Shown in pieces: positions 1,185-41,245 of a stretch of DNA of 55,313 nucleotides. The notes under the pieces were generated by a model, which saw only the letters and a program-made list of their open reading frames with translations, searched no databases and had not been told where the DNA came from. Where the stretch lies: positions 1 through 55,313 of the IMG/VR virus record IMGVR_UViG_3300047564_001761. One strand, written 5' to 3'. Position 1 is the first letter of the stretch. The number at the start of each line of letters is the position of its first letter. Source of the stretch: a virus. Its lineage: Duplodnaviria > Caudoviricetes. The position numbers and the translations under genes were made by a program.

Positions 1185-1385
1185 AAACAGAGGAGCGACG
1201 GCAACTCTGGAATATGACTGAACGAAGTCTTTTGTCAGCAAGGGATGAGTAAGGTACACTGGGGGATTAGCGTCCTGATCTTAGCGGGTCTAACTGGTGG
1301 TCGGATGAAAGCGTATATCATACAATGGTATTGTTGACTTATCCGTGGTGGTAAAAGGCAATCCACCTATTCACAATAATTATAA

Positions 1386-4392: not shown

Positions 4393-4990
4393 TGTGGATA
4401 ACTTGTGGATAACTATATAAAGAAAATTAATAAATAACTAATGTTTATATATGTTATAGTTATATGGGTAATAGCGCATATCAAAATATGAGACGTAATG
4501 TCAAATTTGGAGGGATAAAATATCAACATATGAGACCTATCATATTTGGAGAGACTTGTCAATAACTTGACCATATATATCTCATTATATGAGACAATAT
4601 TCCCGTGATTTTTGGGACTCATCGTAATGTTTTTTTGCATAAAAAATCCCAAATTTCACGGAGAAATTGGGATAAAATAGATTATAATTATATTATTTAA
4701 ATAGTTTTTCTAGAATTCTTTCAAGAAATATAAGCAGCTTATTAGACCTCTTATCTGTATAGTGCATAGGTTGTTTATATAGGTTAGAGAAGTATCTACG
4801 TGGCATTATTATTCCTCCTGCCGCCGTTCGGCGGCGGTGATCCAGAAGATCACCTTACTCCTAGTATAGTACATAGAATAATACCTTGTCAAATTCCCGT
4901 GATTTTTTAGATCATGTCGTAATGTCTAAATTATATAGATAATACTTATCCACAGAGATATCCACAGGTTGTGGATAAAGTTGTGGATAA
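4393..4990. promoter_or_regulatory. DnaA-box cluster flanking AT-rich non-coding island
   Basis: TGTGGATAA at 4393, 4404, 4970, 4982; TTATCCACA at 4946; ATATCCACA at 4958. Confidence 0.85.
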
Positions 4991-5047: not shown

Positions 5048-5120
5048 ATTTATTTGATATGCTGCATTTTATATGCCGCACACAAACCCCAGCTTTGTCA
5101 AGCTGGGATCGTGCGTTATA

Positions 5121-5492
5121 TTATGCGTTTTGCGGGATACGGAATCCTAGTTTATCTAAGAGCTCTTGCCCCAAATGATACTGGCAGAATTCCTCAAATG
5201 AATGCCCGTCGATTTGCTTATTTACCATATCAATTTCTACAGTAAAGTCCCATAGATTTGTATTCTCTGGGTCCACCGCAAATAAACCAAAGCCCGTTTC
5301 TGAATTCCAGTCTTCGTTAATTAATTGGCTTACGATAATACGGGTTGCATAGGATGCATCGTTCCACCGTGGCTTTGCCATCCAGATTGCATGTGCGATT
5401 GATGACTCCCATTCAGTCTCGCCCCAATGTGAATATAGGGCCACTGCCTGAGATGTGCCATCGTTGAATACGTAATTGATACGTGCTCCCAT
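5121..5492 (-). CDS. hypothetical phage protein
   Basis: ORF track; AAGGAG RBS. Confidence 0.8.
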   Translation of the reverse strand: MGARINYVFNDGTSQAVALYSHWGETEWESSIAHAIWMAKPRWNDASYATRIIVSQLINEDWNSETGFGLFAVDPENTNLWDFTVEIDMVNKQIDGHSFEEFCQYHLGQELLDKLGFRIPQNA

Positions 5493-5495
5493 AAT

Positions 5496-5777
5496 TTATT
5501 CTCCTTGTTGTAGTGGGTTTGCCTTGAAGTATTTCTTCAATTCATTGTATGCTCCTACGATGTAGGAAACTGCGCTATCGTTTTTCTTTACTGTGATGTG
5601 TCCAAGTGCTGAGCCAATTGCGTAGGCAGTACCTAAATCATTAGCCTCATGTACAGGCTTGCCCTTATCACCAAGATAAGCAACCATGACCATAACACGA
5701 TAGCAGAGTGTGTTTAATTGTAGTTCGCCATCGGCTTCGTTAGCCCATGCCTGGATTTCGTTACTGATTGTAGTCAT
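5496..5777 (-). CDS. hypothetical protein
   Basis: ORF track; operon coupling. Confidence 0.7.
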   Translation of the reverse strand: MTTISNEIQAWANEADGELQLNTLCYRVMVMVAYLGDKGKPVHEANDLGTAYAIGSALGHITVKKNDSAVSYIVGAYNELKKYFKANPLQQGE

Positions 5778-6114
5778 CTAGATTAACCGCTTTCTCATCG
5801 TATTTGTAATTGGACCATTGTACTACAGGTGGCTCGTAGTTGTCAAGAATATCCTTGCCTGGACCCTCGTCTAGGACTATGGTATCTATCACACTGGCTA
5901 CCTCAACTGTATCGTTGTCTTTATTGTGGTAGTTATAGTATTTGAAATCAACTCCCCAATACTTTATCATTGTTAGAAATAGTTTCATTATTCGCCGCTG
6001 GACATTTGGTGGTTGCTTCATCACGTTCATGGCAAAGTCTGAGTCTTGGAATCTAATATCTGAAATTGAATCTACTAACTTTTCTACCGCCTTCTCTTCA
6101 TCTCTCTTAGCCAT
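5761..6114 (-). CDS. hypothetical protein
   Basis: ORF track; TTGACA...TAGAAT promoter and GGGAG immediately upstream. Confidence 0.75.
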   Translation of the reverse strand: MAKRDEEKAVEKLVDSISDIRFQDSDFAMNVMKQPPNVQRRIMKLFLTMIKYWGVDFKYYNYHNKDNDTVEVASVIDTIVLDEGPGKDILDNYEPPVVQWSNYKYDEKAVNLDDYNQ

Positions 6115-6180
6115 AACTCCCTATTCTACTAAAAATATGTGGGGGTGTCAAGTACCCACCCCCACCGCTATTAAATTATA

Positions 6181-6315
6181 TTACTTAGTGTTTGGTGCTT
6201 CAAAGACCTTACCTTCGGCCTCTGCATTGCGTAGTGCTTCTACCTGAGCACGTGTGAAACGTCCTCGTGCCCCAACTAGAAATCCTAGTTGCTCTAGATA
6301 TTCACGCTTTGTCAT
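6181..6315 (-). CDS. Lsr2-like DNA-binding domain microprotein (44 aa)
   Basis: manual translation MTKREYLEQLGFLVGARGRFTRAQVEAL..., RGR AT-hook-like motif; AAGGAG RBS; own promoter upstream. Confidence 0.65.
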   Translation of the reverse strand: MTKREYLEQLGFLVGARGRFTRAQVEALRNAEAEGKVFEAPNTK

Positions 6316-6394
6316 CCGCATTCTCCTTTTTGTTAGTTTGTGCTAATCCTACCACCATGATAGGAAACCTGTCAAGCTGTCTCATAATTTGAGA

Positions 6395-6784
6395 CTACTC
6401 TTCCTCTTCTCCGTCATACTCTTCGATAATGCCTTCATCAAGCATCCAGTCCCGTACAGCCTCGTACAGGTCCTCTGTCCCGTATTCCAGTGTGAACCCG
6501 TTCTTGTCCGCCTGTGTGAAGAACAGTTCCCACATCTCTTCTTCATCCATAGTTACGTTGTAATCAGGATCTCCGCCTTCACGGATGTCTTTTAAAATAG
6601 TTATTGCTACATCCCAAGTCCATACCCAAACCAGGGGCGGGAATAAACGAAGTTCCCCTATCTTATCAATGATTATATTGATATCACGGAATGTATCCTG
6701 CATGCGTGTTTTTTCCTGTAGATCCATATCAGTCTTCGTACCCATCAAAATACCCCTCTGCCCATAGGCCTTGTAAGAAATCAT
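6395..6784 (-). CDS. acidic hypothetical protein (start may be 6745)
   Basis: ORF track. Confidence 0.7.
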   Translation of the reverse strand: MISYKAYGQRGILMGTKTDMDLQEKTRMQDTFRDINIIIDKIGELRLFPPLVWVWTWDVAITILKDIREGGDPDYNVTMDEEEMWELFFTQADKNGFTLEYGTEDLYEAVRDWMLDEGIIEEYDGEEEE

Positions 6785-7054
6785 GAGCCATAACTAAATA
6801 GTTATGGATAGCAGGATTTTCATCAGCATTGACTAATAAGTCTGCTTGATAAACTCCATATGTCATATCTGCTAGATCCTTCTGTGTATAACCTAGCATT
6901 ATTCATTCCACCAATACTTAACAATTGTGTTTAAAGTAGTATGAATATGGCAGTCACAATCTTCACCGCCCATATTCTCGTGGAATTCTATATGAGAATA
7001 ATTATCCTCGTATATCTCGTTAACTAGTTCTTCGATAGTTCTCATGCCTGCTCC

Positions 7055-7588
7055 TTAGAAGTGGAAATCAACTGGGACGAGGAATTGTAGCATGGCGGTC
7101 TCAGGCTTGTCAAGTCTTTCCCGTAAATATCTCAAATCCGCAGTGTATTCCTTTTTGTCAAAGAAGGCGGAGTCAGGTATCCATTCGCCTGACATTAACT
7201 TACACATAGTATTAATATAGTAATTGTTAAAATCAAATCGGCTGTCGTCAGGTAGTTCTCCACTGTTACTAATATACTCAACAATGTCAGAGGTAAACTT
7301 ATCTAACTTTATCTTAGTTAGATATTGGTTGGCATTCTCAATACGATACTTAACAATACCGTCAATTATCTTATTAAACTCTTCAGGCTTTTCTGCATAT
7401 GAGATAATCATATTGGATGAATCTTCATATTGTGATTCAGACCAGCGACCACCGCCGACAACATGCCAGTCAGACCAATCGCAATTTCTAAATCCTGTTT
7501 CTTCTGACGGCTCTAAGAATGCCTGAACATCTGAGAAGGCCTCTTCCATATCTTGTGCTTCAACCGCAATGTAGTGGAGTGTGTGCAT
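7055..7588 (-). CDS. hypothetical phage protein
   Basis: ORF track; WSDWHVVGGGRW and terminal VDFHF motifs; promoter upstream. Confidence 0.8.
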   Translation of the reverse strand: MHTLHYIAVEAQDMEEAFSDVQAFLEPSEETGFRNCDWSDWHVVGGGRWSESQYEDSSNMIISYAEKPEEFNKIIDGIVKYRIENANQYLTKIKLDKFTSDIVEYISNSGELPDDSRFDFNNYYINTMCKLMSGEWIPDSAFFDKKEYTADLRYLRERLDKPETAMLQFLVPVDFHF

Positions 7589-7624
7589 TTTCCTGTGCTT
7601 TCTATTAGTTTATCGTAATGGGTA

Positions 7625-7680
7625 ATTCTACCATGCGGGACTGACATCTGTCCAGCCCAGCCAGTGTGATTAATATCACA
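7625..7680 (-). promoter_or_regulatory. promoter with perfect CRP-type box
   Basis: minus strand TGTGATATTAATCACA-N10-TGGACA-N18-TAGAAT. Confidence 0.75.
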
Positions 7681-7683
7681 AAG

Positions 7684-7896
7684 CTATGCGAAGATCGACC
7701 AGCCCTGGAAGTCTCCCTCATCCACGACATAGCGCTGAACGGCAGACCAAGCGGACTCCCCGTAGAAATACTTAGGGCGCTTGTTGGGGACGGTAACCTT
7801 GAAGAAACAATTATCTTCGTTGGCCTCGTATACGTCAATTGCTGTGTCCCCGTTATAAATAGGGAACCAGGTTACAGAATTTACTTTAGGTTTCAT
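7684..7896 (-). CDS. hypothetical protein, leaderless
   Basis: TTGACT-N18-TAGAAT-N6-ATG on minus strand. Confidence 0.75.
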   Translation of the reverse strand: MKPKVNSVTWFPIYNGDTAIDVYEANEDNCFFKVTVPNKRPKYFYGESAWSAVQRYVVDEGDFQGWSIFA

Positions 7897-8130
7897 GGCT
7901 GTATTCTACCACCCCGCATAGCCGTGAGTCAAGTTTGATCCCCGTAATGTGATCAAAGTCACAGGGGCCGCACCAGCTTTATAAAAAGCAGAAGGGCCAG
8001 GTCCCCCAACCTGGCCCCTCATGTAGGCATTCCCATATTTAACGACTTGGCGAAGCCTGACAGCCGTACCTACATCATCACCACTTACGTGATACATACT
8101 ATTTTACTTGACTGAAATAAATCTGTCAAG

Positions 8131-8349
8131 TTACTCCCACTTTAGTGTGTATCCCTTTACCCTAATGTTTCTGCCCATGTTAAACTTCTTCACGGCCTCT
8201 GATACAACTGCCTTGTCTTCATATTTAGTTATTGCTATGAAGTTATCAATTGCATCGCTGGCGGTGATACCCGCAAACATAAGATTGTTATTCTTACGAA
8301 TAATCCAAGCCATTAGAACTCCCCGTTCTCTAACATGGTAATAAGCCAT
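8131..8349 (-). CDS. hypothetical protein (start likely 8313)
   Basis: ORF track; GGGGAG before second Met. Confidence 0.6.
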   Translation of the reverse strand: MAYYHVRERGVLMAWIIRKNNNLMFAGITASDAIDNFIAITKYEDKAVVSEAVKKFNMGRNIRVKGYTLKWE

Positions 8350-8469
8350 TCGATTGCTTCTACCAATTCGTCGTCTATTGTTTGTTCTGCTTTTTCTGCC
8401 AATTGTTCTACAAGATCCTCACGAGATTGCTTGTAGCCATCGTGCCAGCCAGATGTGTAGTCTGACATA

Positions 8470-8697
8470 TTACTCCTTTTGATATGGATGATTTGGTTCG
8501 TACTCTGACAAATAAGTTTCTTTTAAACTGTACTTGTCTCTAATACGTGAGACCTTCTCAATGCTACCAGTTCCAATGTTGAATGTCAACGGGGGCATGA
8601 ACTCAGGGTCCAGCCCATTAATCTCAGCCTCCCAATAGGCCCTCTCAAGAGAGAGCCTATCAGGAGCGGTAAGTTCAAAATACATTATGCGTTCCAA
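8470..8697 (-). CDS. hypothetical protein
   Basis: ORF track; operon coupling. Confidence 0.65.
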   Translation of the reverse strand: MERIMYFELTAPDRLSLERAYWEAEINGLDPEFMPPLTFNIGTGSIEKVSRIRDKYSLKETYLSEYEPNHPYQKE

Positions 8698-9371
8698 TCA
8701 ACGTCGTGGTCTTCAACGGACCAGGAATCAACTGAGACGTCACCATGCCATGAATCAATACTTAGATTGTCACTTAAGAAGTAACGGGCATCGAAATCTT
8801 CTACTTCTTCAAGTGGGATATCGTAGTCTACTTCAACCTGAATAGTTGCAGTAATACGCACTGTTTGCTTTGGCTCGTGCCCAAGAATCTCGCAAAGGTC
8901 GTTTAGAACTTCTACCTTCTCATAGTTTGGGTTATACCAACCGTCAGCGTTTAGGTTATCAATAATGCTATTGACCTGTGTCTGAAGATTATTTAATCTA
9001 GTAGTTAACAACTGATTCTCATGAAGTTGATATTCTAAATCAACAGTCTTGATACTTGGGTAAATTGCCTCACCGTTGACGATAGACTTATATGTAATAA
9101 GACTATTAGGATTGTAGGTCTCAGGGACCGTTGGTGTTAGAATTGGTTCGTACTGATTTTCCATTTGATTACTTTCTGCTTGTAGGGACGAAGGCGCTAT
9201 TGTAGCACTTTCGGATGAGATATGCAACATATCTCGCCCACATGGACATGTGAGCTTTACCACACCAGATGGGAATCCAAACCCATCTGATGTAGTTACT
9301 TCGATCATAGTATCACACTCATCTGGGTCACAGATGAATGTGTACTTGCTAGAGATAATGTCAGACATCAT
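8685..9371 (-). CDS. hypothetical protein with N-terminal Zn ribbon
   Basis: CDPDEC...CPCG; ATGA coupling. Confidence 0.75.
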   Translation of the reverse strand: MMSDIISSKYTFICDPDECDTMIEVTTSDGFGFPSGVVKLTCPCGRDMLHISSESATIAPSSLQAESNQMENQYEPILTPTVPETYNPNSLITYKSIVNGEAIYPSIKTVDLEYQLHENQLLTTRLNNLQTQVNSIIDNLNADGWYNPNYEKVEVLNDLCEILGHEPKQTVRITATIQVEVDYDIPLEEVEDFDARYFLSDNLSIDSWHGDVSVDSWSVEDHDVDWNA

Positions 9372-10132
9372 GCATCTACCTTATCTACTAGAGACTTATG
9401 GATTTCGCATTCTGCCATTGCCTCTTCATCTTGCCATGAACCTTCGTTACATTCAGAGCAGAATTCACCGCATTCATTATCGCAGTAAGATAATGTATCA
9501 AAAGATTGGCAGGCGTAGCAACGATTCTCCCATTCTGCTAATTCTTTTACTTCACCACGTAGAATCTCATACTCTCCACCCCAGCCAGTTTCTTCTTCAA
9601 ACTCTAATGTGAGAAGAGAGTTGGGAACTAAGTTAGATAGTTTAGTTAGAACTGTGACGGCAGGAGACCAAGCAGTCTCATACTTATAAACAAGCCAGTT
9701 ATCCTCACCCTCTGACTTGTGTTCAACCAACTCAGTATTAGGATATTCATCCTCATCACGAACTGCTACATCCCACTTGGTTCCCCAGTTAGTATGATTC
9801 CAGTTATACCAATCCTTTTGAGTCTTAGCAAACTCGACGGACTTAGCAAACCAACTAGGGTCTTTCATATCTACACCATCACGAGCAGGCTGGCAGGCAT
9901 ACTCTTCATCAGTAATACCAGCATCCTTATATGAATAGATATTATGAAAAGCAAAGACAGGATTGTTGTATTCAACCTGAGTAATCTTAGTTGGGAATCC
10001 CATAGAACTAATATCACCCATGCCAAACGTTTCCTGCGCTAGTGTAAACGGACGGTTAAGTCTTTCTTTGATAGAATCAATCTCAGACTTAGGACCTTGG
10101 ATTGTTAATGTATTATATACCCAGTTTGGCAT
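9368..10132 (-). CDS. DUF1281/YubB (Api92-like) ferredoxin-like domain protein with Cys-rich tail
   Basis: MPNWVYNTL, WYNWNHTNWGTKWD, ETAWSP motifs. Confidence 0.75.
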   Translation of the reverse strand: MPNWVYNTLTIQGPKSEIDSIKERLNRPFTLAQETFGMGDISSMGFPTKITQVEYNNPVFAFHNIYSYKDAGITDEEYACQPARDGVDMKDPSWFAKSVEFAKTQKDWYNWNHTNWGTKWDVAVRDEDEYPNTELVEHKSEGEDNWLVYKYETAWSPAVTVLTKLSNLVPNSLLTLEFEEETGWGGEYEILRGEVKELAEWENRCYACQSFDTLSYCDNECGEFCSECNEGSWQDEEAMAECEIHKSLVDKVDA

Positions 10133-10165
10133 ATTATTACCTTTCGTAGTAGGAGGGGGCTTATT

Positions 10166-10600
10166 CTACACTGTTGCGACGGCGTTGTCAAGAACCATCT
10201 TGGATTGCCATAGCATACAGTTAGAATCTAAACGGTCACCGAATATACGTATATAATCAGCGATATCTTCTGTTTGATCAGTTAAGCAGGACTTCACGGT
10301 TTCTACTGAAATAAACACACGTCCATTCCATAGACCCATTGCACCTATATTAGTAGGAACTTCTAGGCAACCATATGTATCTTGCTCCCAGCCAACACCT
10401 TCTGAACAAACAAGGGCGTACTTATTATCACCGAAGACATTCTTTTCTTCAAGTGTAATCAGTAATAGATTATCTACTGTGCATTCGCTAAAGTCATTGC
10501 CATATTGTAAGCGATAGATATCATTAGCAATTGTAGCCAGTTTCTTTCCGTCCACAATTTGTCCAACATATCCGTTCATTCGTGATGCTCTGCGGTCCAT
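10166..10600 (-). CDS. hypothetical protein
   Basis: ORF track to 10789, but GAAAGG RBS and promoter support ATG at 10600. Confidence 0.7.
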   Translation of the reverse strand: MDRRASRMNGYVGQIVDGKKLATIANDIYRLQYGNDFSECTVDNLLLITLEEKNVFGDNKYALVCSEGVGWEQDTYGCLEVPTNIGAMGLWNGRVFISVETVKSCLTDQTEDIADYIRIFGDRLDSNCMLWQSKMVLDNAVATV

Positions 10601-10802
10601 ATATTTCCTTTCGATAAGGGTGAATTTTACCATTCTGCAGGGACCCGTGTCAAATCCGTGATGCCCGTAATAGACCCGTAATATGTGATTTTGAGCACAA
10701 ATGGTGCCGCCCCATTTTTTCAGCTTTGTCAAGTGCAACACGATCATGAAATAAAAAAAATACGGGAGCGAATTTCTTCGCCCCCGCATCTTTTATTTTT
10801 TA

Positions 10803-11822
10803 TTATGCGATTTGCATAATTCCCTTAACCACTTTTAGCAAGCGATTTTTTTCTGCGTTGATTTGTGCATCAAATCCTGATGCAGATGCAAGGATAGATT
10901 CGTTAGAACCACCACGAGCAGAGCGGTGCCAGTCAAGGCGTTCAGTAAGTGCATTAAACGCACCCCAAGCAGTTCCAGCAATCATGCCGTTAAACTCGCC
11001 TGTGTAAATATCGTTGAGAGTATCAACTTTATTTGTCCATTTGGTGATTGCGTTCTTTGCTTCACCCTTTGGCTTTGGATAAGCAGCGAGAATGATGTCG
11101 TTGAATTCCTGAGCGGTGACTTCCTTCTCATATAGAGAATTAGCCAACTTTGAGAATTCGTCCATGTATGCATTAGCAAGACCAAGAGTCTCACGTGCAA
11201 CTTGAATTTTTCCTTCTGCTGTTTGTGTGTGGCGAATCTTGAAAGATTGCTTAACGCCACCCTTCTTACGACCAACACCATTAAGTGCAAGGTTTAGAGT
11301 ATTAGCGCACACAACACGAACGGGAGTAATAGATGCCTGAATAGCAATAGACCCGTCATGAGATGTGTTGATGAGCAAATAAGTCTTCACCTTATCTGCT
11401 ACGCCCTGAGCGTCAATAACCGCTTCACGTTCAAGAGCAAGAGAGCCGAATACAACACGCCCTCCACGAATAGAGCCAGCAGTTTCCCAGCGTCCTCCAC
11501 CATCTAGAATGTTATCGCCGAATGAGAATAAATCTTCATTCTGCAATGGTACATAACGCTGACCAACTACGCCGAGAACGTCTGTTTGAGATGCGTCGGT
11601 AGGATTGGTACGCACTACGTACTGATATGATTTATCAGATGAGAGGTGATTTGGAATTTCCAAATCTTCAAGGCGAACGTTCCACCCGTCAAGATTTGCG
11701 AGAGATAGCATTTCGCCAGTAGTTACTTCATTTGTAAATACTGTTCCGAGACCATGCCAAGCAGGTTCTCTGAATGATGCGAATGAGGTTTTGCCATTTT
11801 GATTTTCTAGGTCGTGAGCCAT
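10803..11822 (-). CDS. DUF932 family phage/plasmid-like protein
   Basis: PAWHGLG, ETAGSIRGGR, YLLINTSHDGS, TPVRVVCANTL, IRHT, GTAWGAFNA. Confidence 0.88.
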   Translation of the reverse strand: MAHDLENQNGKTSFASFREPAWHGLGTVFTNEVTTGEMLSLANLDGWNVRLEDLEIPNHLSSDKSYQYVVRTNPTDASQTDVLGVVGQRYVPLQNEDLFSFGDNILDGGGRWETAGSIRGGRVVFGSLALEREAVIDAQGVADKVKTYLLINTSHDGSIAIQASITPVRVVCANTLNLALNGVGRKKGGVKQSFKIRHTQTAEGKIQVARETLGLANAYMDEFSKLANSLYEKEVTAQEFNDIILAAYPKPKGEAKNAITKWTNKVDTLNDIYTGEFNGMIAGTAWGAFNALTERLDWHRSARGGSNESILASASGFDAQINAEKNRLLKVVKGIMQIA

Positions 11823-12276
11823 AGTTTTCCTTTCGATTGTTTGAAGAGCCTATTTTAGCACAACCACCCCAGCGGAGTCAATTCATCTTAGTTAAATGTC
11901 CGAATTATCCTAGTATTTCCCGTGTGTTTAAAATCACACCCGTAAAACTTGACAAGATCAGTTTTTGGGGGCGGCACAGCTCAGGCTATTTGTCAATAGC
12001 CAAAGCGTCTTGCCATTCTGTGTCGTCTATTTTTGGCGTAGGGATAGATAATAAATTAACTATAACAGCAATTGGAAGAATAATAAAATAAATTACCAAC
12101 ACAACTGCAATTAACACGCCAAAGAAAGTGCCCATACCGTAGTAGAAATCCATTGCGTTATCCTATCACATTTTTTAGTCGTTGTACAATTGGCAGGTGA
12201 CACACGCACTCGCACACATAGTAATTATTTTGTTTACAATCATTGCACATATAATCAGATCTACACTGCCAGCCCA

Positions 12277-12999
12277 TTATTTTTTACTCGCAGAGAATCT
12301 AACATCGGCCTTACCATAAACACACAATCCGCATGATACGCAGGCGGACCCATTGCTAGAGATAAGAGGAATTTTCTTTAGGTTCTCAGGACACTTAGCG
12401 CCAGGCTTACCGATTAATTCTTTCATCTTGCTTTCAGTAGCGGCGAAAGTCTTACCTAGATATGCAAGACGAATACCCTCATAGTTAGTGCGTAAGTCTT
12501 CCGCAATTTCTGCATTCTCATCGTCGGTAGAATAGTAAAGAGATAGGTTTTCAATACCCTTAAGCATAATAGCAGCGGACTTTACACGTGTATATACCCA
12601 GAATTGAACATCGGGATGATTAAGAATAACATGCTTCCAGGCGAATGTATAAGTATCGTTAAAGAAATCTCCGTCCCAGTGGATACGGAATAACTTATCT
12701 GCCTTACGCTTATCGCAATCTTTTTTGAAGTCTTCGATCATTTCCATGAGTAGCGCTTCCATAGTATCATGGTCGGCGTCTTTTAATAATTCCCAGTTAT
12801 GTAGAAGAGTAGCCTTTACTCCCTTATAGACTTTTTCCAATTTGCCTGCATAGCAAACAGTCTCGCAGATAGACGTAGCACCAGGACATGAATAGGCTTT
12901 TCCTGCAGGTAATCCGAAGGTGTTGGCAATTGTTGGGGTTTTTCCATTAGGGGAGACGGCATTAGTTACTTTCCTATCATTAGAGCGCTTCAGTTTCAT
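12277..12999 (-). CDS. mycobacteriophage gp88-like protein (Cys-rich, Fe-S candidate)
   Basis: SCPGATSICETVCYA, FRIHWDGDF, WVYTR, C-terminal CP...CVSCGLC. Confidence 0.75.
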   Translation of the reverse strand: MKLKRSNDRKVTNAVSPNGKTPTIANTFGLPAGKAYSCPGATSICETVCYAGKLEKVYKGVKATLLHNWELLKDADHDTMEALLMEMIEDFKKDCDKRKADKLFRIHWDGDFFNDTYTFAWKHVILNHPDVQFWVYTRVKSAAIMLKGIENLSLYYSTDDENAEIAEDLRTNYEGIRLAYLGKTFAATESKMKELIGKPGAKCPENLKKIPLISSNGSACVSCGLCVYGKADVRFSASKK

Positions 13000-13046
13000 T
13001 AGGGGCCTTTCTTAGTGGGGGTGTAATTCTAGCATACTGCAGGGGT

Positions 13047-13181
13047 TTAATCAAGTTTATTAGCGTGTTTCTTTTTCCTAGTATAAACTTTCTTACTAGG
13101 AATAGCGGTAGCGCAATTGCTACGTCGTAGCTCAAGCACACGGCGTAATTCCTCACGGGTTTTCCTAGTTTTAGTAATCAT
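13047..13181 (-). CDS. small basic protein (44 aa), leaderless
   Basis: manual translation MITKTRKTREELRRVLELRRSN...; TATTAT-N6-ATG. Confidence 0.6.
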   Translation of the reverse strand: MITKTRKTREELRRVLELRRSNCATAIPSKKVYTRKKKHANKLD

Positions 13182-13318
13182 GCCGTAATAATAGCAGAAA
13201 TTCCAGCGTTAATCAAATCCTACCCGTAAGTAGCTCTGTGAGATTGATCACAGGTGCCGCAATTTTTTCAAGGGAAATGCCCCGCTAGAAAGAAAGGTAA
13301 CTAACGGGGCAAGATTGT

Positions 13319-13344
13319 GAGCAGTTTTGGCTCTTGCTCAGGAG
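13319..13344 (-). ncRNA. small pseudoknot motif copy
   Basis: CTC-CTGAGCAA-GAG-CC-AAAACTGCTC, just before terminator-like hairpin at ~13277-13311. Confidence 0.55.
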
Positions 13345-13421
13345 GTCTGCGTCTTTAGGTCGGCAGTAACCTTGCTCTATAGTATTTTTATTATCGCCCT
13401 AATCAGCCTGGCGAATATTTT

Positions 13422-13592
13422 TTACTTGCTTGTTTTCACCATTGCAAAACGGCGAGAACCATTAGCGAGAATTAGATTTACACGAGTAACCTTATTGCTA
13501 ATTGGAGAGAAGTTAGCAATACGACCTGTAACACCTGTCTTTGATGTTGTGAAAAGGTCTCCGATTTGATAAGTGTATCCGCCAAGAGTCAT
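13422..13592 (-). CDS. small hypothetical protein (56 aa), paralog of 14162-14308
   Basis: manual translation ...IGDLFTTSKTGVTG...; GAAAGG RBS. Confidence 0.7.
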   Translation of the reverse strand: MTLGGYTYQIGDLFTTSKTGVTGRIANFSPISNKVTRVNLILANGSRRFAMVKTSK

Positions 13593-13623
13593 TTATTTAT
13601 TTCCTTTCAGTAGTGGGTTGGTT

Positions 13624-13650
13624 GAGTAGTTTAGCGACATACTCAGGTCG
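13624..13650 (-). ncRNA. small pseudoknot motif copy
   Basis: CGAC-CTGAGTAT-GTCG-CT-AAACTACTC. Confidence 0.55.
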
Positions 13651-13658
13651 TAGATTAT

Positions 13659-14075
13659 TTAGAGATACTTAGCAATTTGCTTCATGGTTGAAGCATTTAC
13701 TGTTTCCTCATCTGTCATCTTTAGAATTGTGAGAGCATTTGTGATGTCCTCTACAATTTCATTGTATGTGTGCTGGTGCATAATTGTGAAATCACGCTCA
13801 GGCTCTTTAGGGAAATCGGTTTCCTTTACAATCAAATCAAAATCAACATTAAGAGAGTTGTTCCAAGAGCGATAAGATGTGCGGAAGTTTTCAGCCTTCT
13901 TGATGTTTGCAATAGCAAAATCTTGAACTTCCTTACGCCACTTTTCTCTTGACTTCTCATACTTTGCTTCGTTTGCACCCTGCTCAGCATAGTCTTTCTT
14001 GATTGTTGCCAACTTTGTTTCCAAAGCCTTGATTACCTTTGGTGTTGCCACCTTTACTGTGATTGCTCTGCTCAT
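13659..14075 (-). CDS. hypothetical protein
   Basis: ORF track; AGGA RBS; promoter at 14111-14140. Confidence 0.8.
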   Translation of the reverse strand: MSRAITVKVATPKVIKALETKLATIKKDYAEQGANEAKYEKSREKWRKEVQDFAIANIKKAENFRTSYRSWNNSLNVDFDLIVKETDFPKEPERDFTIMHQHTYNEIVEDITNALTILKMTDEETVNASTMKQIAKYL

Positions 14076-14161
14076 GTTATTCCTGTTCTTTTAGTGGGTT
14101 ATTAGGGAGTATTTTAGCAGATGGGCTGAACTATTGTCCAGCCCACCCGCTGTGATTTACA

Positions 14162-14308
14162 TTACTTTGCTGTTGTCCAGCGGTCTTGACCATTGACGGA
14201 TAGTCTGATACGATAAGAGCCATTATCGTTCTTGACTACTTCCTGAACCTCACCTGTTACGCCTGACTTAGCAGTTGTAAAGGTTTCACCGATTTTTGGA
14301 GTTGCCAT
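14162..14308 (-). CDS. small hypothetical protein (48 aa)
   Basis: manual translation MATPKIGETFTTAKSGVTG...; GAAAGG RBS. Confidence 0.7.
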   Translation of the reverse strand: MATPKIGETFTTAKSGVTGEVQEVVKNDNGSYRIRLSVNGQDRWTTAK

Positions 14309-14588
14309 TTGTGCTTCCTTTCTGTTGTTGTTGAGAGAGAATTATAGCAAAACCCACCGACATACACAAATCCAAAATGCTATCAAATCGGACATTTTCC
14401 TGTGATAAAAAACACATTAGCGTAACTTGACTTTCGCCAAAAAATCGGCGGCAAATTCCAGGGATTCCTGTGAGATCTTAGTAATGCATGTAATAGCAAG
14501 TAGTAGCTCTGTGCGGCGCTGTCGGGCGTGTCTAAATTAGTTGAAAGTTAAACCAATTTGATTTAACTTTCAACCTTTTTAGATCGTG

Positions 14589-14879
14589 TTACTTTCCTGA
14601 AACTTTTCCATCTCGCCAAAAGTTTTTAGTCCAAAGTTTTCCATTTGGTTCTGCTAAATTATAAGTTGCGTATTCTTCAGCGTCACCGAAATCAACGCAC
14701 TTATTAAAATCATTTACTGCGTCAAGTGCAAAGTTATAGCGTTGTGTATTTACTAATTCACCATCATAGTAAGTTGTTAGTGCGTAGTCGTATTCCAAAG
14801 TTTCCCCCTTGTTGTAGTTCATAAATGTACCGCCTCTCTCAAACCAGTTTCGTCTTTTTTCTAATTCAGTAATTGTCAC
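14589..14879 (-). CDS. hypothetical protein (start may be 14822)
   Basis: ORF track. Confidence 0.65.
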   Translation of the reverse strand: MTITELEKRRNWFERGGTFMNYNKGETLEYDYALTTYYDGELVNTQRYNFALDAVNDFNKCVDFGDAEEYATYNLAEPNGKLWTKNFWRDGKVSGK

Positions 14880-15043
14880 TACTCATTAACCCAGTCAATG
14901 GTTAGTTCATCAGATAGTTCTGCGATACAATCGCAAGGCTCTACATCATAGTCGTATTCATTTCCAAAGAAAATAAATCCTGCTCCACCGCACTCATCAC
15001 ATGGAGCAGAAACAATCTCGATTAGTTCTTTTACATTAGCCAT
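14879..15043 (-). CDS. small Zn-binding hypothetical protein
   Basis: MANVKEL... with GAAAGG RBS; CDECGGAG...CDC. Confidence 0.65.
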   Translation of the reverse strand: MANVKELIEIVSAPCDECGGAGFIFFGNEYDYDVEPCDCIAELSDELTIDWVNE

Positions 15044-15187
15044 TTTAGTTTTCCTTTCGTGTTGTTGTTGGAATTGTAGCAGATAGCACTGACAATGCCT
15101 CCGCCTTGCTTGCTTCACGTTGAGCAATAACGTGAGCCTTGAATTCATCTAGGTTCATTTAGTTTTCCTTTCGTTAGAAAATTGTGT

Positions 15188-15243
15188 GTGAGTTCTTACT
15201 TACGACATTGGGCGAGAACACTCACGAAACTGCCCCTGTTTCG
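15188..15243 (-). ncRNA. intergenic two-hairpin pseudoknot candidate
   Basis: CGAAAC-AGGGGCA-GTTTCG then GTGAG.GTTCT...AGAACTCAC, with loop GCCC complementary to GGGC. Confidence 0.45.
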
Positions 15244-15250
15244 ATTTTAG

Positions 15251-15454
15251 TTAATCGGAATTCTTAACCGCAACTGTGCGGAAAGTTGTAGAAATACGAT
15301 TAGTAGGCTGTACCTCTACTAGATAGGTATCGCAACCTTCATACCATACCGCTTTAGGGTGTGGCTCGGCGTTGATAATAATTCCTTCAAGGGAATTGGA
15401 GTAATACTGCTTACCTACTAGGAGGTTACGGACAGAGTATACATTTGCTGACAT
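15251..15454 (-). CDS. hypothetical protein
   Basis: MSANVY... with GAAAGG RBS. Confidence 0.7.
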   Translation of the reverse strand: MSANVYSVRNLLVGKQYYSNSLEGIIINAEPHPKAVWYEGCDTYLVEVQPTNRISTTFRTVAVKNSD

Positions 15455-15841
15455 TTTATTTCCTTTCTTTATACCCGCAATTATAGCGGATAGGTCTGAC
15501 AAATTATTAAGTTTTGGGGGGTGTGTCGTTGTGATTTATATCACAACGCACCTTCCTGAAATAAACCTATTTCAAGGTCTAGCAATTCGGACGGGGTGGC
15601 GTCTGATAAATCAACCCAGCCAGCACCCTCTTCATCTATTCTGAATATTTCAATATAACCCATAGTTAGTTATCCTTTCTTTATGTCTGAAATTATAGCA
15701 TGGGGGACTGACAAATTTCTTGTTACCTCTCAGTATTTGAGACAAAATTCCTGTGATAAAAATCACATGATCATAAATTCCTGTGAAAAAGTTATCCACA
15801 GAATAATCCCCAGACACGCCCGACCTCGTGGGGCGGCAAAT

Positions 15842-15857
15842 TCGAACAGATGTTCGA
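15842..15857. promoter_or_regulatory. LexA (SOS) box, actinobacterial consensus
   Basis: TCGAAC-AGAT-GTTCGA. Confidence 0.7.
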
Positions 15858-16423
15858 ACTGCATTTATAATTATGAATTGTTATGCATAATTATTCAAAG
15901 TAGAACGGATCAAATTCTCCATCGAATAATTCAGCGTCAGCTGAATTTTCAAATTCAAATTCATCAGTTTCATTTATTACTTCTGGAGTAGTAAATAATT
16001 CTGAATTATCCTCGTAGTAATTATCCCAATTATATTTGGGCTGTTCCCATGACATTGTGTAACTCATAGATAGTTCTCCTTACATTCTGAACAAACGAAA
16101 TTAATTTTGCAATAGCAGCCAACGGCGGAAAGTAGATTATCATTCTGATAATCGTAGTAATCATCACGATAACTCATTCTGAAACCTCCTCAACATGGAA
16201 AGCGTTAAACTTATCGAGTTCATTCTCGCTAAGTGGGTAGAGTGTTTTATTAAGTGCAAAGATTGCGCTTAGTTCATCTTGTGCCTCTACGACATAAGAT
16301 ATAAGTACATTATATTTACTCATTTATATTCTCCTTTCGAGATAAGTTCATCTAGTTTTAAAACTAGTTCATCTTGAGGTTCATCAAGATAGTTTTTTAA
16401 TTCTGAATTTTTTACGAAGTCTA

Positions 16424-16600
16424 TCATTTAGATACCTTCCAATCTGTCCACATTGGTAGACGCTCAGGGTCGGTATCGTTATACCAACGCTCAATATTGT
16501 TTTCACAAACTTCACAAAATGTGAATTGTGTATCTGCATATTCTGAGATAGCAGGTTTGAATGGTGTGTGCTCTGCACACTTGATAATTGTTGAATTCAT
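16424..16600 (-). CDS. small Cys/His hypothetical protein (58 aa)
   Basis: manual translation MNSTIIKCAEH...CEVCENN...; GAAAGG RBS. Confidence 0.65.
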   Translation of the reverse strand: MNSTIIKCAEHTPFKPAISEYADTQFTFCEVCENNIERWYNDTDPERLPMWTDWKVSK

Positions 16601-17202
16601 TTGAATTCCTTTCTAGTTTGAGAACCTTTCTCAACTTTCTTTATAATGGAATTATAACAGGGGGGTCTGACATTTACTGACTGGTAATGCCACAAATCGG
16701 ACATTTTGAAATGTGATGTAGGTCATGTGGATAACTCACGCTCAAATTTCCGTGTGATTTAAATCACGTGCATAAACCTGTGGAGGACACGCCCGAGTGC
16801 GGGGGCCGCAAAATTTTCGCAGCTTGTCAAGTTAACACGCCGAGAAAATTTTGTTTTTTATTTTTTTTTATAATGTGATCAGAATTCCAAAAGCTAAACA
16901 AAATAAAAAGAAAATAAAAGTCTCTTTCATTTCATGCATGCTTCCCAAAATCTATCGGAATCAAATCTTTCGTTATCTTCCGAAAACATAACGGCGAAAT
17001 CATCCACCAAATCTTCATAAGTAAAACTGTTACCGATTAAATCTTTATAAGTAGAAAGAATCTCGGCGGTCTTTACATAGTCTTTACGTGTCATCATATT
17101 AATTTAGTCCGTTCTCTCGTAGGTCCTTGATTACTGCAATTAGTAGGGGAATGGTAACGCCTGCCAAGATTAATTGGACGGCGGTTGTTAGTAGTCTATT
17201 CA

Positions 17203-32274: not shown

Positions 32275-32838
32275 ATGTCATTAAAACGCTATGATGGAAC
32301 GCAATGGGTTACCGTTGCTGGTTCACGTCCAGGCCCTACAGGTCCAGCAGGACCTCAAGGCCCAGCAGGTTCACAGGGGCCAGCAGGCCCCGCAGGTGCG
32401 GCAGGCCCAGCAGGACCACAAGGTCCGCAAGGAGTCGCAGGCCCAGCAGGTTCACAAGGAATTCAGGGTCCTATTGGTCCAACAGGTGAAAGAGGCTCAA
32501 AGTATTTTACTGGCTCATTGAATCCAGTTTCAACTTCTGGCTACTTCACTGGAGATCAGTTTTTAAACACCACAACTGGTGACCTATTTACATTTAGTGC
32601 ACTTCCAACACCAGCTTGGACACTAGCGGATAATATTATTGGTCCAGCAGGACCGCAAGGCCCAGCAGGACCAACAGGTCCTACTGGAGAAATTGTTGTG
32701 GCGGACATTGAAAGAAGAGTATCTGCATATGAGTTAGATATTCTGCTAAACTTAGGTATATACTTTCCAAAGTATAATACCCTTGCAAATCTTTCAACAG
32801 TTACTGGAACAATTTCAGCAACAAGCTTTATTCTATAA
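32275..32838 (+). CDS. collagen-like (Gly-X-Y) protein
   Basis: long GPA/GPQ triplet runs. Confidence 0.85.
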
Positions 32839-39019: not shown

Positions 39020-39997
39020 ATGACATACAGCGTAGGTACTACAACAGGGCAAACCTATTTACCAGGCCTTACCTCAACATTAACAAGTATTGTTTCGGCA
39101 AATCTTGTAGTTAATGGTGGTGCTTACTTGCCAGTTCAAGAAAGAATTTATACAACTGGTAACTGGACACGTCCAGCAAATCCAGTTCAGATTGCAGACT
39201 GGATCAAAGTAACTTGTGTTGGAGGAGGCGGCTCTGGTGGATCTGCAACATCATGGACTGGTCCTGGCTCAGGCGGTGGCGGAGCTGGTCAGTACCTAAC
39301 ACGATTTGTCAACATCGCAGGTGTTGCTGCTGGAGGAACAATACCAGTTGTTATAGGTGATGGAGGTGCTCAGGTTGGAGGAAACACTAACGGAAATAAT
39401 GGTGGAAATACAACCTTCGGAGTAAATGGTAACGCATTCCATCTTATTGCATATGGCGGTGGCGGTGGAGCATATGCTAGAGACTGGGGAAGAAATGGCA
39501 ACAACGGTTCATGCGGAGCAGGTGCAAGTAACATTCAAGGCTCAGGCTCAGGCGGTGGCGGAGGGGGTTACTGGCAGTATCAGTACTCAGGATCAGGCGG
39601 AGGTGGAGGAGCTAATGAAGTTGGACACCATGCATTCTCCCACGTAAGAACAAACGGAACATTTTATGGTGGATACCTAGGAGGAAGAGCCTACGGCTTT
39701 GGTTCATCTATGGGTGGAAATGGAATTTCAAACTCTTGGGGAACGTATCACACTTCTGGAGGAAGAGGTGGACAAGGCATCAACGGTCTTGCAGGCGGCG
39801 GCGGAGGCGGCGGCGGAGTTGGTGGAGCAGGATCTTCTGGTGGAGGACAAGGGGGAGATGCAATTAGAGATAACGCTGGACAGCCAGGTGTTGATGGAAC
39901 TGGCGCAGGCGGAGGCGGCGGAATGAATGGTGGATCAGTAGGTCGAAAAGGCGGTAGTGGAATAATAATAGTAGAATATTATAGAAGGATATCATAA
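39020..39997 (+). CDS. glycine-rich domain fibre protein
   Basis: GNWTRP...VGGGGSGG...GGSGIIIVEY. Confidence 0.8.
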   Translation: MTYSVGTTTGQTYLPGLTSTLTSIVSANLVVNGGAYLPVQERIYTTGNWTRPANPVQIADWIKVTCVGGGGSGGSATSWTGPGSGGGGAGQYLTRFVNIAGVAAGGTIPVVIGDGGAQVGGNTNGNNGGNTTFGVNGNAFHLIAYGGGGGAYARDWGRNGNNGSCGAGASNIQGSGSGGGGGGYWQYQYSGSGGGGGANEVGHHAFSHVRTNGTFYGGYLGGRAYGFGSSMGGNGISNSWGTYHTSGGRGGQGINGLAGGGGGGGGVGGAGSSGGGQGGDAIRDNAGQPGVDGTGAGGGGGMNGGSVGRKGGSGIIIVEYYRRIS

Positions 39998-40272
39998 TGA
40001 CAAGTAGATTTGTTTTAGTTGATGGAGAAACAATTGTAAATTCTGTTTATGGCGGAACTAGAGAGTTTTTAGAGTCTCACCCAGATTATCAAGGGTATAC
40101 AGTAGTTGATGTTTCTGATATGGATCCGTGGCCATCAGTAGATTGGACATATGTAGATGGGGAATTTGTTCCTCCAGTTACAAATGTAGAGGCAGCTCCA
40201 GTTCCTGGAGCTTTTGAAGAAGAAATTGTAACTGAAGTTGAAAATATAACTCCAGCTATTGGAGAAGTTTAA
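39997..40272 (+). CDS. small chaperone-like protein following Gly-rich gene
   Basis: F.LVDG..IVN...WTYVDGEFVPP. Confidence 0.65.
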   Translation: MTSRFVLVDGETIVNSVYGGTREFLESHPDYQGYTVVDVSDMDPWPSVDWTYVDGEFVPPVTNVEAAPVPGAFEEEIVTEVENITPAIGEV

Positions 40273-40282
40273 GGAGAGTAAC

Positions 40283-41245
40283 ATGCCAACAGTTCTAAGC
40301 ACAACCCAACAAATAATGATTCCAGGCCTTGAGGACACTTTAGGTTCTGTTGTCAGAAACGTGACTCCACCAACTCCTCTTTTTATTCAAAAAGAAGAAA
40401 CAATTTTAGCTAATGGTAACTGGACACGTCCAGCAAACATTTCTGATTTTATTGAAGTGACACTAATTGCTGGTGGTGGATCAGGAGGAACTTCAAATAA
40501 CAACTCACGTTATGGCGGAGGCGGTGGCGCAGGCCAGTTTGTAAGAAGAATTCTTAATATCTCATCAATAGCGTCACTTGGAGTTATTCCAGTTACAATT
40601 GGAAACGGCGGAGCAGCGGTATCTGGTGCAACTAATGGAAACAATGGCGGAAACTCAGCGTTTGGAACATCTGGAAATACATTTTACATGGTTGCATACG
40701 GCGGAGGCGGCGGAGGTTGGGCCGCAGATAATGGACGTGATGGAAATAATGGATCGATGGGTCCAGGTGCAGAGAATAGAACAGGATCTGGCTCAGGCGG
40801 AGGCGGCGGTTCAGAATGGCAACGTTCATGGGGCGGCGCAGGCGGAGGCGGAGGTGCTTCTCAGGGAGGAATGACTGGTGGAGCAATTCATGGAGGACAC
40901 CAAGGAGACTTTGATGCTGGACGTGCTGGAGGAAGAGGAATTGGTGAAGGCTCGTCTGGCGGTGGCGGTGGAATGGGAAACAGTACATCTCATGAAGACG
41001 CAACTGGCGGATCAGGCGGAGCAGGAATTGAAGGTTACGCAGGCGGAGGCGGCGGAGCAGGACGATGTGGTGGAGGTAATGGGTCTTGCGGTGGAGGAAT
41101 GGGAAGAAATCACACCCATGGTGAGCATGACAAGTCTGCCGCACCTAACTCAGGCTCAGGAGGCGGAGGATCTAATTCAGATACTTCTTCTGGGGCTGGT
41201 GGTTCAGGAATATGCATAATCAGATACTGGGCTAAAATAAATTAA
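40283..41245 (+). CDS. glycine-rich domain fibre protein, paralog of 39020
   Basis: GNWTRPAN...GGSGICIIRY; AAGGAG before ATG 40283. Confidence 0.8.
   Translation: MPTVLSTTQQIMIPGLEDTLGSVVRNVTPPTPLFIQKEETILANGNWTRPANISDFIEVTLIAGGGSGGTSNNNSRYGGGGGAGQFVRRILNISSIASLGVIPVTIGNGGAAVSGATNGNNGGNSAFGTSGNTFYMVAYGGGGGGWAADNGRDGNNGSMGPGAENRTGSGSGGGGGSEWQRSWGGAGGGGGASQGGMTGGAIHGGHQGDFDAGRAGGRGIGEGSSGGGGGMGNSTSHEDATGGSGGAGIEGYAGGGGGAGRCGGGNGSCGGGMGRNHTHGEHDKSAAPNSGSGGGGSNSDTSSGAGGSGICIIRYWAKIN

Follow-up and report, generated by a model that had tools for sequence, protein, structure and literature searches.

Among described phage elements, two come closest to the one considered here. In T4-type phages, PeSL elements are composed of a sigma-70-like promoter and a polyG...polyC stem-loop, which possibly overlaps the -35 or the -10 element, and they end upstream transcription and serve as linkers for modular shuffling (PMC2839356; PMC4122927). 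In Cluster A mycobacteriophages of the L5 type, stoperators are described as asymmetric 13-mers, more than 20 per genome, which a known monomeric repressor binds and whose orientation strictly follows transcription (PMC9283540, PMC6550527). The stretch of DNA analysed here, called the window, is the whole of IMG/VR record IMGVR_UViG_3300047564_001761, a single phage contig of 55,313 nt with 38.8% G+C, and the element is a bipartite pair, TTGACW-N15/16-GCGGC, in which a -35-like hexamer is followed by a GC core at the boundaries between early gene cassettes. We give about an even chance to the reading that this pair is a non-random sub-unit of composite intergenic boundary modules between early units, where it would act as a boundary or linker and not as an initiating promoter. 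These modules appear analogous to the PeSL cassettes of T4-type phages, the closest known system.

The pair was recovered at exactly the five places where a first-pass annotation had put it, on the minus strand at 5075-5101, 10706-10732 and 16805-16830 and on the plus strand at 11949-11975 and 14427-14452. The pair is enriched: in 100 dinucleotide-preserving shuffles the mean was 0.06 matches and no shuffle gave more than one, and the window contains these five and no others. The GCCGC/GCGGC cores were likewise found at 5075, 7967, 10706, 11971, 13256, 14448, 15833 and 16805, at the reported intervals of about 2.9, 2.7, 1.3, 1.3, 1.2, 1.4 and 1.0 kb, and they do mark cassette boundaries, each flanked by the hairpin or terminator at the 3' end of one early unit and by the operator/promoter region of the unit that follows. 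In a gene map built from open reading frames (ORFs) and ribosome-binding sites, these eight places coincide exactly with the long gaps (160 nt or more), of which there are eight, between minus-strand genes from 4.3 to 18.4 kb. The long gaps were defined once the sites were known. Over their 1,987 nt, GCSGC occurs 11 times where a first-order Markov model predicts 2.0, and none of 2,000 simulations reached 11. All eight contain at least one core (simulated mean 1.66, maximum 5), and no long gap is without one; in the other 12,114 nt of the early region two GCSGC were present, at 5994 and 12440. Three cores beyond the eight annotated ones, at 14513, 4820 and 4831, fall in the same gaps. GCSGC was the most enriched all-G/C pentamer in the long gaps, followed by GGGGC (9) and GGGCG (8), which overlap it in blocks such as GGGGCGGC. 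For the longer core KGCSGCMC, 2.6 matches were expected and 13 found; seven of the eight sites account for ten of these. In the window lineage the boundary word often reads TKGCSGCCCC. No Rfam family was found at the sites.

At all five sites the hexamer is TTGACA or TTGACT, and in this perfect or near-perfect -35 element, as in the word that precedes it in relatives, the pair resembles sigma-70-type promoters. It differs from them downstream: 16-18 nt past the five hexamers no -10 hexamer (TAnnnT) was found, a GC-rich block stands there instead, and none of the five was returned by a promoter scan. Judged from its sequence, the pair is not a sigma-70-type promoter. Its orientation is mixed, three pairs being in gene sense (5101, 10732 and 16830) and two antisense (11949 and 14427), and in a profile search Sigma70_r2 was absent from five complete relatives (the control was positive in 10 of 14 named genomes). 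The alternative-sigma promoter that had been put forward thus finds no support in the -10, the orientation or the sigma search. The observation that the GC core sits where a -10 would be holds in four lineages with differing GC words. TTGACA indeed occurs on both sides of the core at 11971, on the plus strand at 11949 and on the minus strand at 11996-11991, N15 before GCCGC. The CAGACA-N16 reported for 15833 is present too, but it belongs to a separate repeated word, GACACGCCCGA, which has copies at 15813-15823 and 16786-16796 and an inverted copy at 14522-14532.

At least 465 IMG/VR contigs encode a DUF932 protein akin to that of the window, and the best 80 of them (L001-L080; 80-84% identity, up to 10 kb on each flank, 1,314,955 nt in total) were taken as relatives. 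The first-pass annotation had looked to relatives for conserved spacing. In its exact form TTGACW-N15/16-GCGGC the pair had no match in the 80 loci, so this pattern and spacing are not kept, but a looser version is. Homologous modules in the closest clade (L010, L011, L020, L026, L027, L030 and L033) have N18, N19 or N13. At 13256 the window has TTGAAA at N5 and the homologue of the L010 clade has TTGACA-N19-GCGGC, and the homologues of the site at 16786-16839 have N18 or are without GCSGC. The -35-like TTGACA in relatives is often preceded by GGCGTGTCG, so that the hexamer of the half promoter follows the same word as genuine promoters do. GYGTGT-N2-7-TTGACW occurred in 148 copies in 67 of the 80 loci, against 4-9 copies in five shuffles, and 41 copies have a -10-like hexamer. 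The copies with TTGACT followed by TTTT are genuine promoters with a TGCTAnnAT extended -10 at 17 nt; those with TTGACA followed by AA are without a -10, have a GC block next, and are read here as promoter halves. Among 2,602 TTGACW, 173 were without a -10-like hexamer but had a five-G/C run at +17 to +30.

The GC word itself is specific to the lineage. GCSGC is the word of the window and the L010 clade, with 8-14 copies per locus (13-14 in the window, L010, L011 and L026). In L003, L004, L005, L007, L018, L038, L040 and L065 it is GGGACGTC(CC), the GACGTC type, with 5-12 copies per locus and 0-2 GCSGC. CCCCGAG/CTCGGGG (CYCGRG core) was found in about ten loci and GGACGTG/CACGTGG (SACGTG type) in about ten, GGGGCGCCCC (GGCGCC type) in L022, and GGCCAGC, CCGGC types and further strings in other loci. 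The GC words head the regulatory region, usually directly after an A/T tract. Upstream of the DUF932 gene, orthologous slots share their flanks (A/T tract on one side; DnaA box, TGTCAA and CGACACGCC on the other) but differ in the word between them. Confinement of the words to the early region holds where it was tested, in complete relatives: all nine GGGACGTC of the 116.6-kb relative lie within 11 kb of early region, all six of a second within 4 kb, and the word is missing from three other complete relatives. On a quick tree of DUF932, the distribution needed two changes for GCSGC, four for GACGTC, and seven each for CYCGRG and SACGTG.

Spacing was counted in unique contexts in which the lineage's own core lay no more than 45 nt downstream of TTGACW. 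The centre of the GC word came 17-20 nt after the hexamer in 13 of 15 cases in the GACGTC lineage, 18 of 34 in the SACGTG lineage and 6 of 24 in the GCSGC lineage (17 of 24 at 15.5-21.5 nt); in the CYCGRG lineage 17 of 21 lay at 16-19 nt and 16 of 21 at 17-19 nt. One orientation of the pair dominates within each lineage. In three of them (16/18, 25/25 and 18/21) the paired hexamer runs antisense to the early genes and the units face hairpins and tRNA flanks; in the window clade the hexamer runs in sense (19/21).

At 5075 the pair is of a hairpin type. Positions 5115-5077 fold at -25 kcal/mol (z -5.6), with TTGACA in the loop and GCGGC at the 3' base, and thus the spacing of the pair equals the length of the arm. 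The homologue in L010 has the same fold (-24.9 kcal/mol, z -6.0) with GCCGC and a different stem sequence, the predicted stem change being compensatory. The hairpin of the minus-strand hexamer at 11996 is comparable (-15.2 kcal/mol, z -3.65), and the spacing of this second pair of 11971, made of TTGACA at 11996-11991 and GCCGC, is in part that of a hairpin arm. The linear-type pairs at 10732, 16830, 14427 and 11949 gave no fold better than shuffles, and a significant fold was missing from some gaps.

With the PeSL cassettes, the window shares composite terminator/promoter modules amid small, mostly function-unknown early genes; sigma-70-like early promoters with an A/T-rich upstream part (for example 10653-10624, 7932-7903, 11881-11852 and 4892-4863); an adjacent stem-loop or terminator (8020-7991, 10794-10755 and 5115-5077), with stem-loops rich in G-runs and C-runs and possibly overlapping the -35 box; and cassette indels and replacements between close relatives with joints in the regulatory modules. 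The PeSL phages are T4-type myoviruses, whereas the best portal matches of the window phage are Streptomyces phages of about 130 kb, at 60% identity, so the window modules are an analogue of PeSL and not a member. They also differ in their length of 160-330 nt and their extra words (DnaA boxes, TGTGA-N6-TCACA palindromes and GACACGCC), in a GC element which is a short word switching between lineages, and in that some -35-like hexamers are wholly without a -10.

The resemblance to stoperators lies in many copies of a short word in the intergenic spaces of an actinobacteriophage-related genome, in a consensus that depends on the lineage, and in a proposed action that blocks transcription instead of initiating it. 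The L5 stoperator 13-mer contains the complement of a -35-like hexamer. The GC words of the window are different in being dyad-like and 5-10 bp long, in their number (five pairs, and 11 GCSGC in the long gaps, eight of them boundary cores), and in the mixed orientation of the TTGACA units. No DNA-binding domain that would point to a stoperator-like cognate repressor was found among the ORFs scanned, the window being about 46% of the genome. Phage T5 carries site-specific single-strand interruptions, short GC-containing sites at fixed places in a large, tRNA-bearing phage genome; the window sites differ in lying on both strands.

If the pair is a boundary sub-unit, it would be either a promoter half whose -10 place is filled by the GC word of the lineage, or a hairpin carrying both motifs in its loop and base. 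Such a boundary would neither melt nor initiate. Next to a GC clamp, sigma region 4 or RNA polymerase could dock there, or else a -35-mimicking regulator, as with the stoperators of mycobacteriophages; alternatively the unit could be just an unmeltable clamp. It may limit read-through and stray initiation. It could also be a conserved linker for cassette exchange, as PeSL cassettes are thought to work, and the identity of the GC word would be shaped by escape from host restriction and by homogenisation among the slots of one genome.

Several points weigh against this reading. Pairing with TTGACW (N12-19) was seen in only a quarter to a third of the GC words (18/53, 25/98, 21/93 and 21/84), so the pair is not the basic unit. 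The spacing was possibly inherited and not selected: sites in related loci lack independence, and a single DnaA box makes up the spacer in several relatives, so inheritance may account for part of the conservation of spacing. The word groups were defined after inspection of the data, and under the thresholds used 44 of 81 sequences were typeless, some with other words and some without a clear GC word; the slots of the latter kind mean that the word may be dispensable. No ORF cluster tracked the word type beyond the clade among 6,885 ORFs of the 80 loci and the window (40% and 70% identity; best F1 0.77-0.82), and for the GACGTC type, with its four changes on the tree, the best cluster was present in five of eight loci. 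Scans of 22 different early-side ORFs with Pfam and/or PHROGs gave no DNA-binding domain, and no binding protein for the GC word turned up among the ORFs scanned. Finally, the word counts inside genes given below depend on an approximate ORF mask, which counts as conserved any ORF of 45 aa or more that has relatives in two or more other loci.

A doubtful but conceivable rival makes the pair a functionless by-product. The gaps would then be paralogous repeats under concerted evolution, TTGACA would be the leftover of promoter halves, and the GC word a restriction-escaping string which had spread among the slots. This could explain why the sites share more than the two motifs (TTGACAAAGCTG at 5101 and 10732; GTGTTGCACTTGACA common to the window at 10732 and to L010-type modules elsewhere), why cassettes are swapped frequently, and why some relatives have no clear word. 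The avoidance of restriction-type words is extreme and also fits: in the window CCGG and CGCG were both absent against 78 expected each, CCSGG was absent against 30, CYCGRG was present once, and GCSGC occurred 44 times against 30. CCGG was absent from 732 kb of grouped loci, ACGT and TCGA were depleted 2-8-fold in the window and its relatives, and the avoidance profile varied by lineage, which suggests a heavy and varied restriction pressure from hosts. Methyltransferases of families PF00145 and PF01555 were absent from the window and four complete relatives, other methylase families not being searched.

Inside genes, a lineage tolerates its own word and has been purged of those of other lineages. 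Observed against expected numbers in ORFs of the GACGTC type were 15/13 for GACGTC, 0/13 for CACGTG, 0/33 for CYCGRG and 3/50 for GCSGC; those of the SACGTG type were 20/19 for CACGTG, 0/19 for GACGTC and 0/51 for CYCGRG; and those of the GCSGC type were 40/49 for GCSGC and 0/31 for CYCGRG. Outside ORFs the own word was enriched in four lineages (38/3, 17/4, 69/20 and 40/16). A string spread only by restriction escape is harder to reconcile with the window clade, whose genes tolerate several GC palindromes (GACGTC 6/11, CACGTG 9/11 and GGCGCC 9/5) but whose slots use GCSGC only. The by-product explanation is also opposed by a hexamer core that is near-invariant over 5-12 slots per genome with variable flanks, by a dyad symmetry of the words far above chance, and by the compensatory manner in which the hairpin-type stems appear to change.

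Equally tentative, and of low probability, is a bolder version of the boundary reading. The GC words might be recognition sites of a fast-diversifying sequence-specific factor of the phage or the host, a 'boundary code' of the lineage which heads each early regulatory region. Together with the promoter half they could dock or trap RNA polymerase at a site that does not melt, and the word type could set the partners for cassette exchange.

That the pair is a true bipartite promoter after all is quite unlikely. A host ECF-type sigma factor or a phage protein would have to read TTGACA as the -35 and the GC word as a substitute for the -10. For the window clade this would mean tandem upstream promoters; elsewhere it would mean divergent or antisense RNAs. 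ECF-type -10 elements contain GC, the GC word is centred at the -10 place in four lineages, and GGCGTGTCG also precedes genuine promoters. A hairpin at 14531-14583, with its T-run on the plus strand downstream of the site at 14427, could end a short RNA, and an unstranded, high-depth RNA-library contig covers 14073-14559 and ends inside this inverted repeat. The words of close relatives, however, differ and are dyad-symmetric, unlike sigma -10 elements; the majority of them are without TTGACA; in three lineages the unit faces away from the genes, into hairpins and tRNA flanks; and the five complete relatives have no Sigma70_r2.

The RNA libraries give a weak hint in the same direction. Their evidence consists of contigs without starts, ends or strand, and coverage gaps (for example 10605-10823) were not counted. 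Contigs of three RNA runs from three studies end at 10599 (with adapter letters next), 10604 and 10597, that is, at the start codon of the gene at 10166-10600, and stop some 15 nt before reaching the start that the promoter at 10653-10624 predicts. No listed piece reaches the pair at 10732, and these ends speak weakly against initiation there. Contigs at 6906-8202 and 11514-12393 run across gaps, so there is room for read-through or DNA carry-over; one X16 contig ends at 7975, and X15 bridges that gap.

Very doubtful, too, is the proposal that the GC words are targets of a sequence-specific nickase, comparable to the T5 interruptions, or of a recombinase at cassette boundaries, with a specificity that varies by lineage. 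The words do resemble type-II enzyme sites (GCSGC, GACGTC, CACGTG, CYCGRG and GGCGCC), they stand at the upstream edge of homology blocks common to relatives, and they are confined to the early region where tested. The PeSL authors also speculated that a recombination protein could target a GGGG...CCCC motif (PMC2839356). On the other side, a search within +/-10 kb gave no candidate enzyme that follows the word type, the own word occurs in genes at about the expected rate, which would not be expected if cutting were harmful, and the core lies on both strands of the window, with five GCGGC and three GCCGC in gene sense.

The joints between strains also speak against an enzyme target. The first-pass annotation had asked whether synteny breaks at the core. 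None of 15 listed strain-to-strain joints lies within 20 nt of a core; they are at promoter/5' untranslated region (5'UTR) places or within genes. What does hold is that homology with relatives begins at or just past the GC word. Five of the 15 joints connect promoter/5'UTR places, namely 14075-16651 (two runs), 14069/14075-15186/15178 and 16675-15190, in contigs of related strains, which also show a joint at 15134-15605. Those among 14064-14075, 15178-15190 and 16651-16675 skip 1.1 or 2.6 kb, so whole early cassettes are present or absent between strains, and the position of the joints means that cassettes are swapped with crossovers at the promoter end of the modules. Homologous exchange is the mechanism we infer for these swaps.

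Some further readings were dropped: a sigma-54 reading (TGGCAC in some relatives) fails for want of a -12 element, a Chi-like reading (GCTGGTGC at 7967) fails on mixed orientation and on a word not common to the other sites, and of plus-strand promoters using TTGTCA only 5095-5124 scores 10/12, the others having no -10. The 'direct terminal repeat' of G002 proved to be a 123-nt overlap and is uninformative on a T5-like first-step-transfer region.

In gene sense, a long gap runs from the 3' hairpin or terminator of the upstream gene through an A/T tract, the GCSGC core and operator-like words to a promoter with an extended -10. The A/T tract is no more than 3 nt from the core in six of eight gaps; the core reads GCGGC at five sites and GCCGC at three, with CCC often next. 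The operator-like words are TGTGA-N6-TCACA palindromes, DnaA boxes, GACACGCCCGA, TCGGGCGTGTC, ATGTCCGATTT and ATTACGGG. Genuine early promoters are exemplified by the minus-strand one at 10653-10624, with TTGACA, 18 nt and TAAAAT with a TG extension; others on this strand are at 4892-4863, 7932-7903, 11881-11852 and 13216-13188, and extended -10 elements are at 14349-14341, 15700-15692 and 16659-16651.

The first site (5075-5115, minus strand) is the long hairpin described above, with TTGACA at 5101-5096 in the loop region and GCGGC at 5079-5075, and lies directly past the stop codon of the gene at 5121-5492. The second (7967-7971, minus) has GCGGC, read as TGCGGCCCC, without TTGACA, between a terminator at 8020-7991 and a palindrome at 7948-7963. 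The third (10706-10732, minus) is a sense TTGACA-N16-GCGGC, preceded by a terminator at 10794-10755 and followed by a palindrome at 10684-10699 and the promoter at 10653-10624. At the fourth (11949-11996, both strands), upstream of the DUF932 gene, TTGACA-N16-GCGGC at 11949-11975 on the plus strand meets the minus-strand hairpin. At the fifth (13256-13260, minus) GCGGC follows a AAAAAATT tract and abuts a palindrome at 13237-13252; its upstream hexamer is the TTGAAA at N5 only.

At the sixth site (14427-14452, plus) TTGACT-N15-GCGGC runs against the genes; read along them, the order is A/T tract, GCCGC, N15, AGTCAAG, TTACG and a palindrome at 14401-14416, a design that matches the modules of GACGTC-type relatives. 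An extra plus-strand core at 14513-14517 lies beside the repeated word TCGGGCGTGTC at 14522-14532, and it is followed by the 26-nt inverted repeat of 14531-14583, 85% complementary, with the better T-run on the plus strand, antisense to the genes. The seventh site has GCGGC at 15833-15837 on the plus strand (GCCGC in gene sense) and GACACGCCCGA at 15813-15823. The eighth (16786-16839, minus) is in sense GGCGTGT-N4-TTGACA-N15-GCGGC-N8-TCGGGCGTGTC.

Exact TGTGA-N6-TCACA palindromes were found at 7665, 7948, 13237, 15530, 15752 and 17969, six against 0.05 expected in the window, with near-copies at 10684, 11923 and 14401. With one mismatch allowed, relatives have 8.6 per locus (205 against 12 in shuffled sequences of 20 loci). 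These CRP/FNR-like palindromes stand upstream of early promoters, with their centre about 60-75 nt before the predicted start in the three gaps measured, and may be operators of a host or phage regulator. All seven exact DnaA-box nonamers, TTATCCACA, lie in early intergenic gaps, three in a cluster (4946, 4970 and 4982; 4946-4990) and the others at 4393, 4404, 15792 and 16726. The same nonamer is the top multi-copy 9-mer in relatives, with 427 copies in 81 sequences and at least three copies in 69, and there it often adjoins a GC word or overlaps a palindrome.

Several further features were noticed. In the 5'UTR (4807-4860) of the gene at 4693-4806 there are two small hairpins, GGTGATC...GATCACC and GCCGCCGAACGGCGGC, with a like hairpin in L010 and L026; GCCGCCGAACGGCGGC supplies the cores at 4820 and 4831. 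On the minus strand, a stretch of about 100 nt (13317-13421) follows the gene at 13422-13592 and is kept at 89-96% identity by the 12 best-matching relatives, although the intergenic DNA around it has diverged; 57 of 80 loci match the gap in which it lies. The hairpin words CCTGAGCA...AAACTGCTCA at the end of this stretch also occur beside tRNA genes in relatives. The stretch had no credible Rfam match (best E-value 0.54) and a fold z-score of -1.8; a small RNA and a processing signal are both conceivable. The minus-strand genes starting at 7896 and 13181 begin 6 nt past an extended -10 (TGGTAGAAT and TGCTATTAT) without a ribosome-binding site, and their mRNAs are likely leaderless. Leaderless mRNAs are common in Actinobacteria, so this trait fits the kinship of the window with Streptomyces phages.

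The minus-strand small genes span about 21.5 kb down to 4.7 kb of the window, and from 21.5 kb the plus strand encodes ribonucleotide reductase, a glycosyltransferase, tail and head proteins, and a portal truncated at the contig end. CheckV estimated the completeness of the contig at 46%. Most early ORFs were without a family match (Pfam and/or PHROGs), and no lysogeny genes were seen within the 55-kb window. The DUF932 protein, encoded at 10803-11822 on the minus strand, shares 53% identity with its counterparts in Streptomyces phages. No phage record nearly identical to the window came up in a search from which such records may have been screened out. Four tRNA genes were present, and a manA RNA motif (Rfam; 1191-1377, plus strand; 63.9 bits against a gathering score of 55.2) lies among tRNA genes. 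Coding repeats at 32330-32700, 39200-41170 and 43930-44210, in putative tail/fibre genes, comprise collagen-like GGN/CCN triplets, glycine-rich GGCGGAGGCGG runs and Pro/Thr-rich 21-nt repeats, and most GCSGC beyond the early region come from such repeats. Part of the window DNA was contained in 20 of 24 listed runs of freshwater metagenomes and metatranscriptomes, from 15 studies; the phage family is widespread in freshwater, with genomes of about 110-120 kb.

No description of these words was found in the literature, supplements aside, the PeSL and stoperator papers being nearest. Two features would be new, having no counterpart in the literature found: promoter halves in which the -10 is replaced by a GC block, and a short GC palindrome that is swapped in all slots together between close relatives. 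The swap of the word coincides with a very strong avoidance, specific to each lineage, of restriction-type sites and would be a concrete tie between the restriction pressure of hosts and the evolution of phage regulatory DNA. The GC words could also be used for sorting these phages into groups. If the boundary reading is true, abundant uncultured freshwater phages would arrange their early genes in exchangeable cassettes, like the T4-type phages with their PeSLs.

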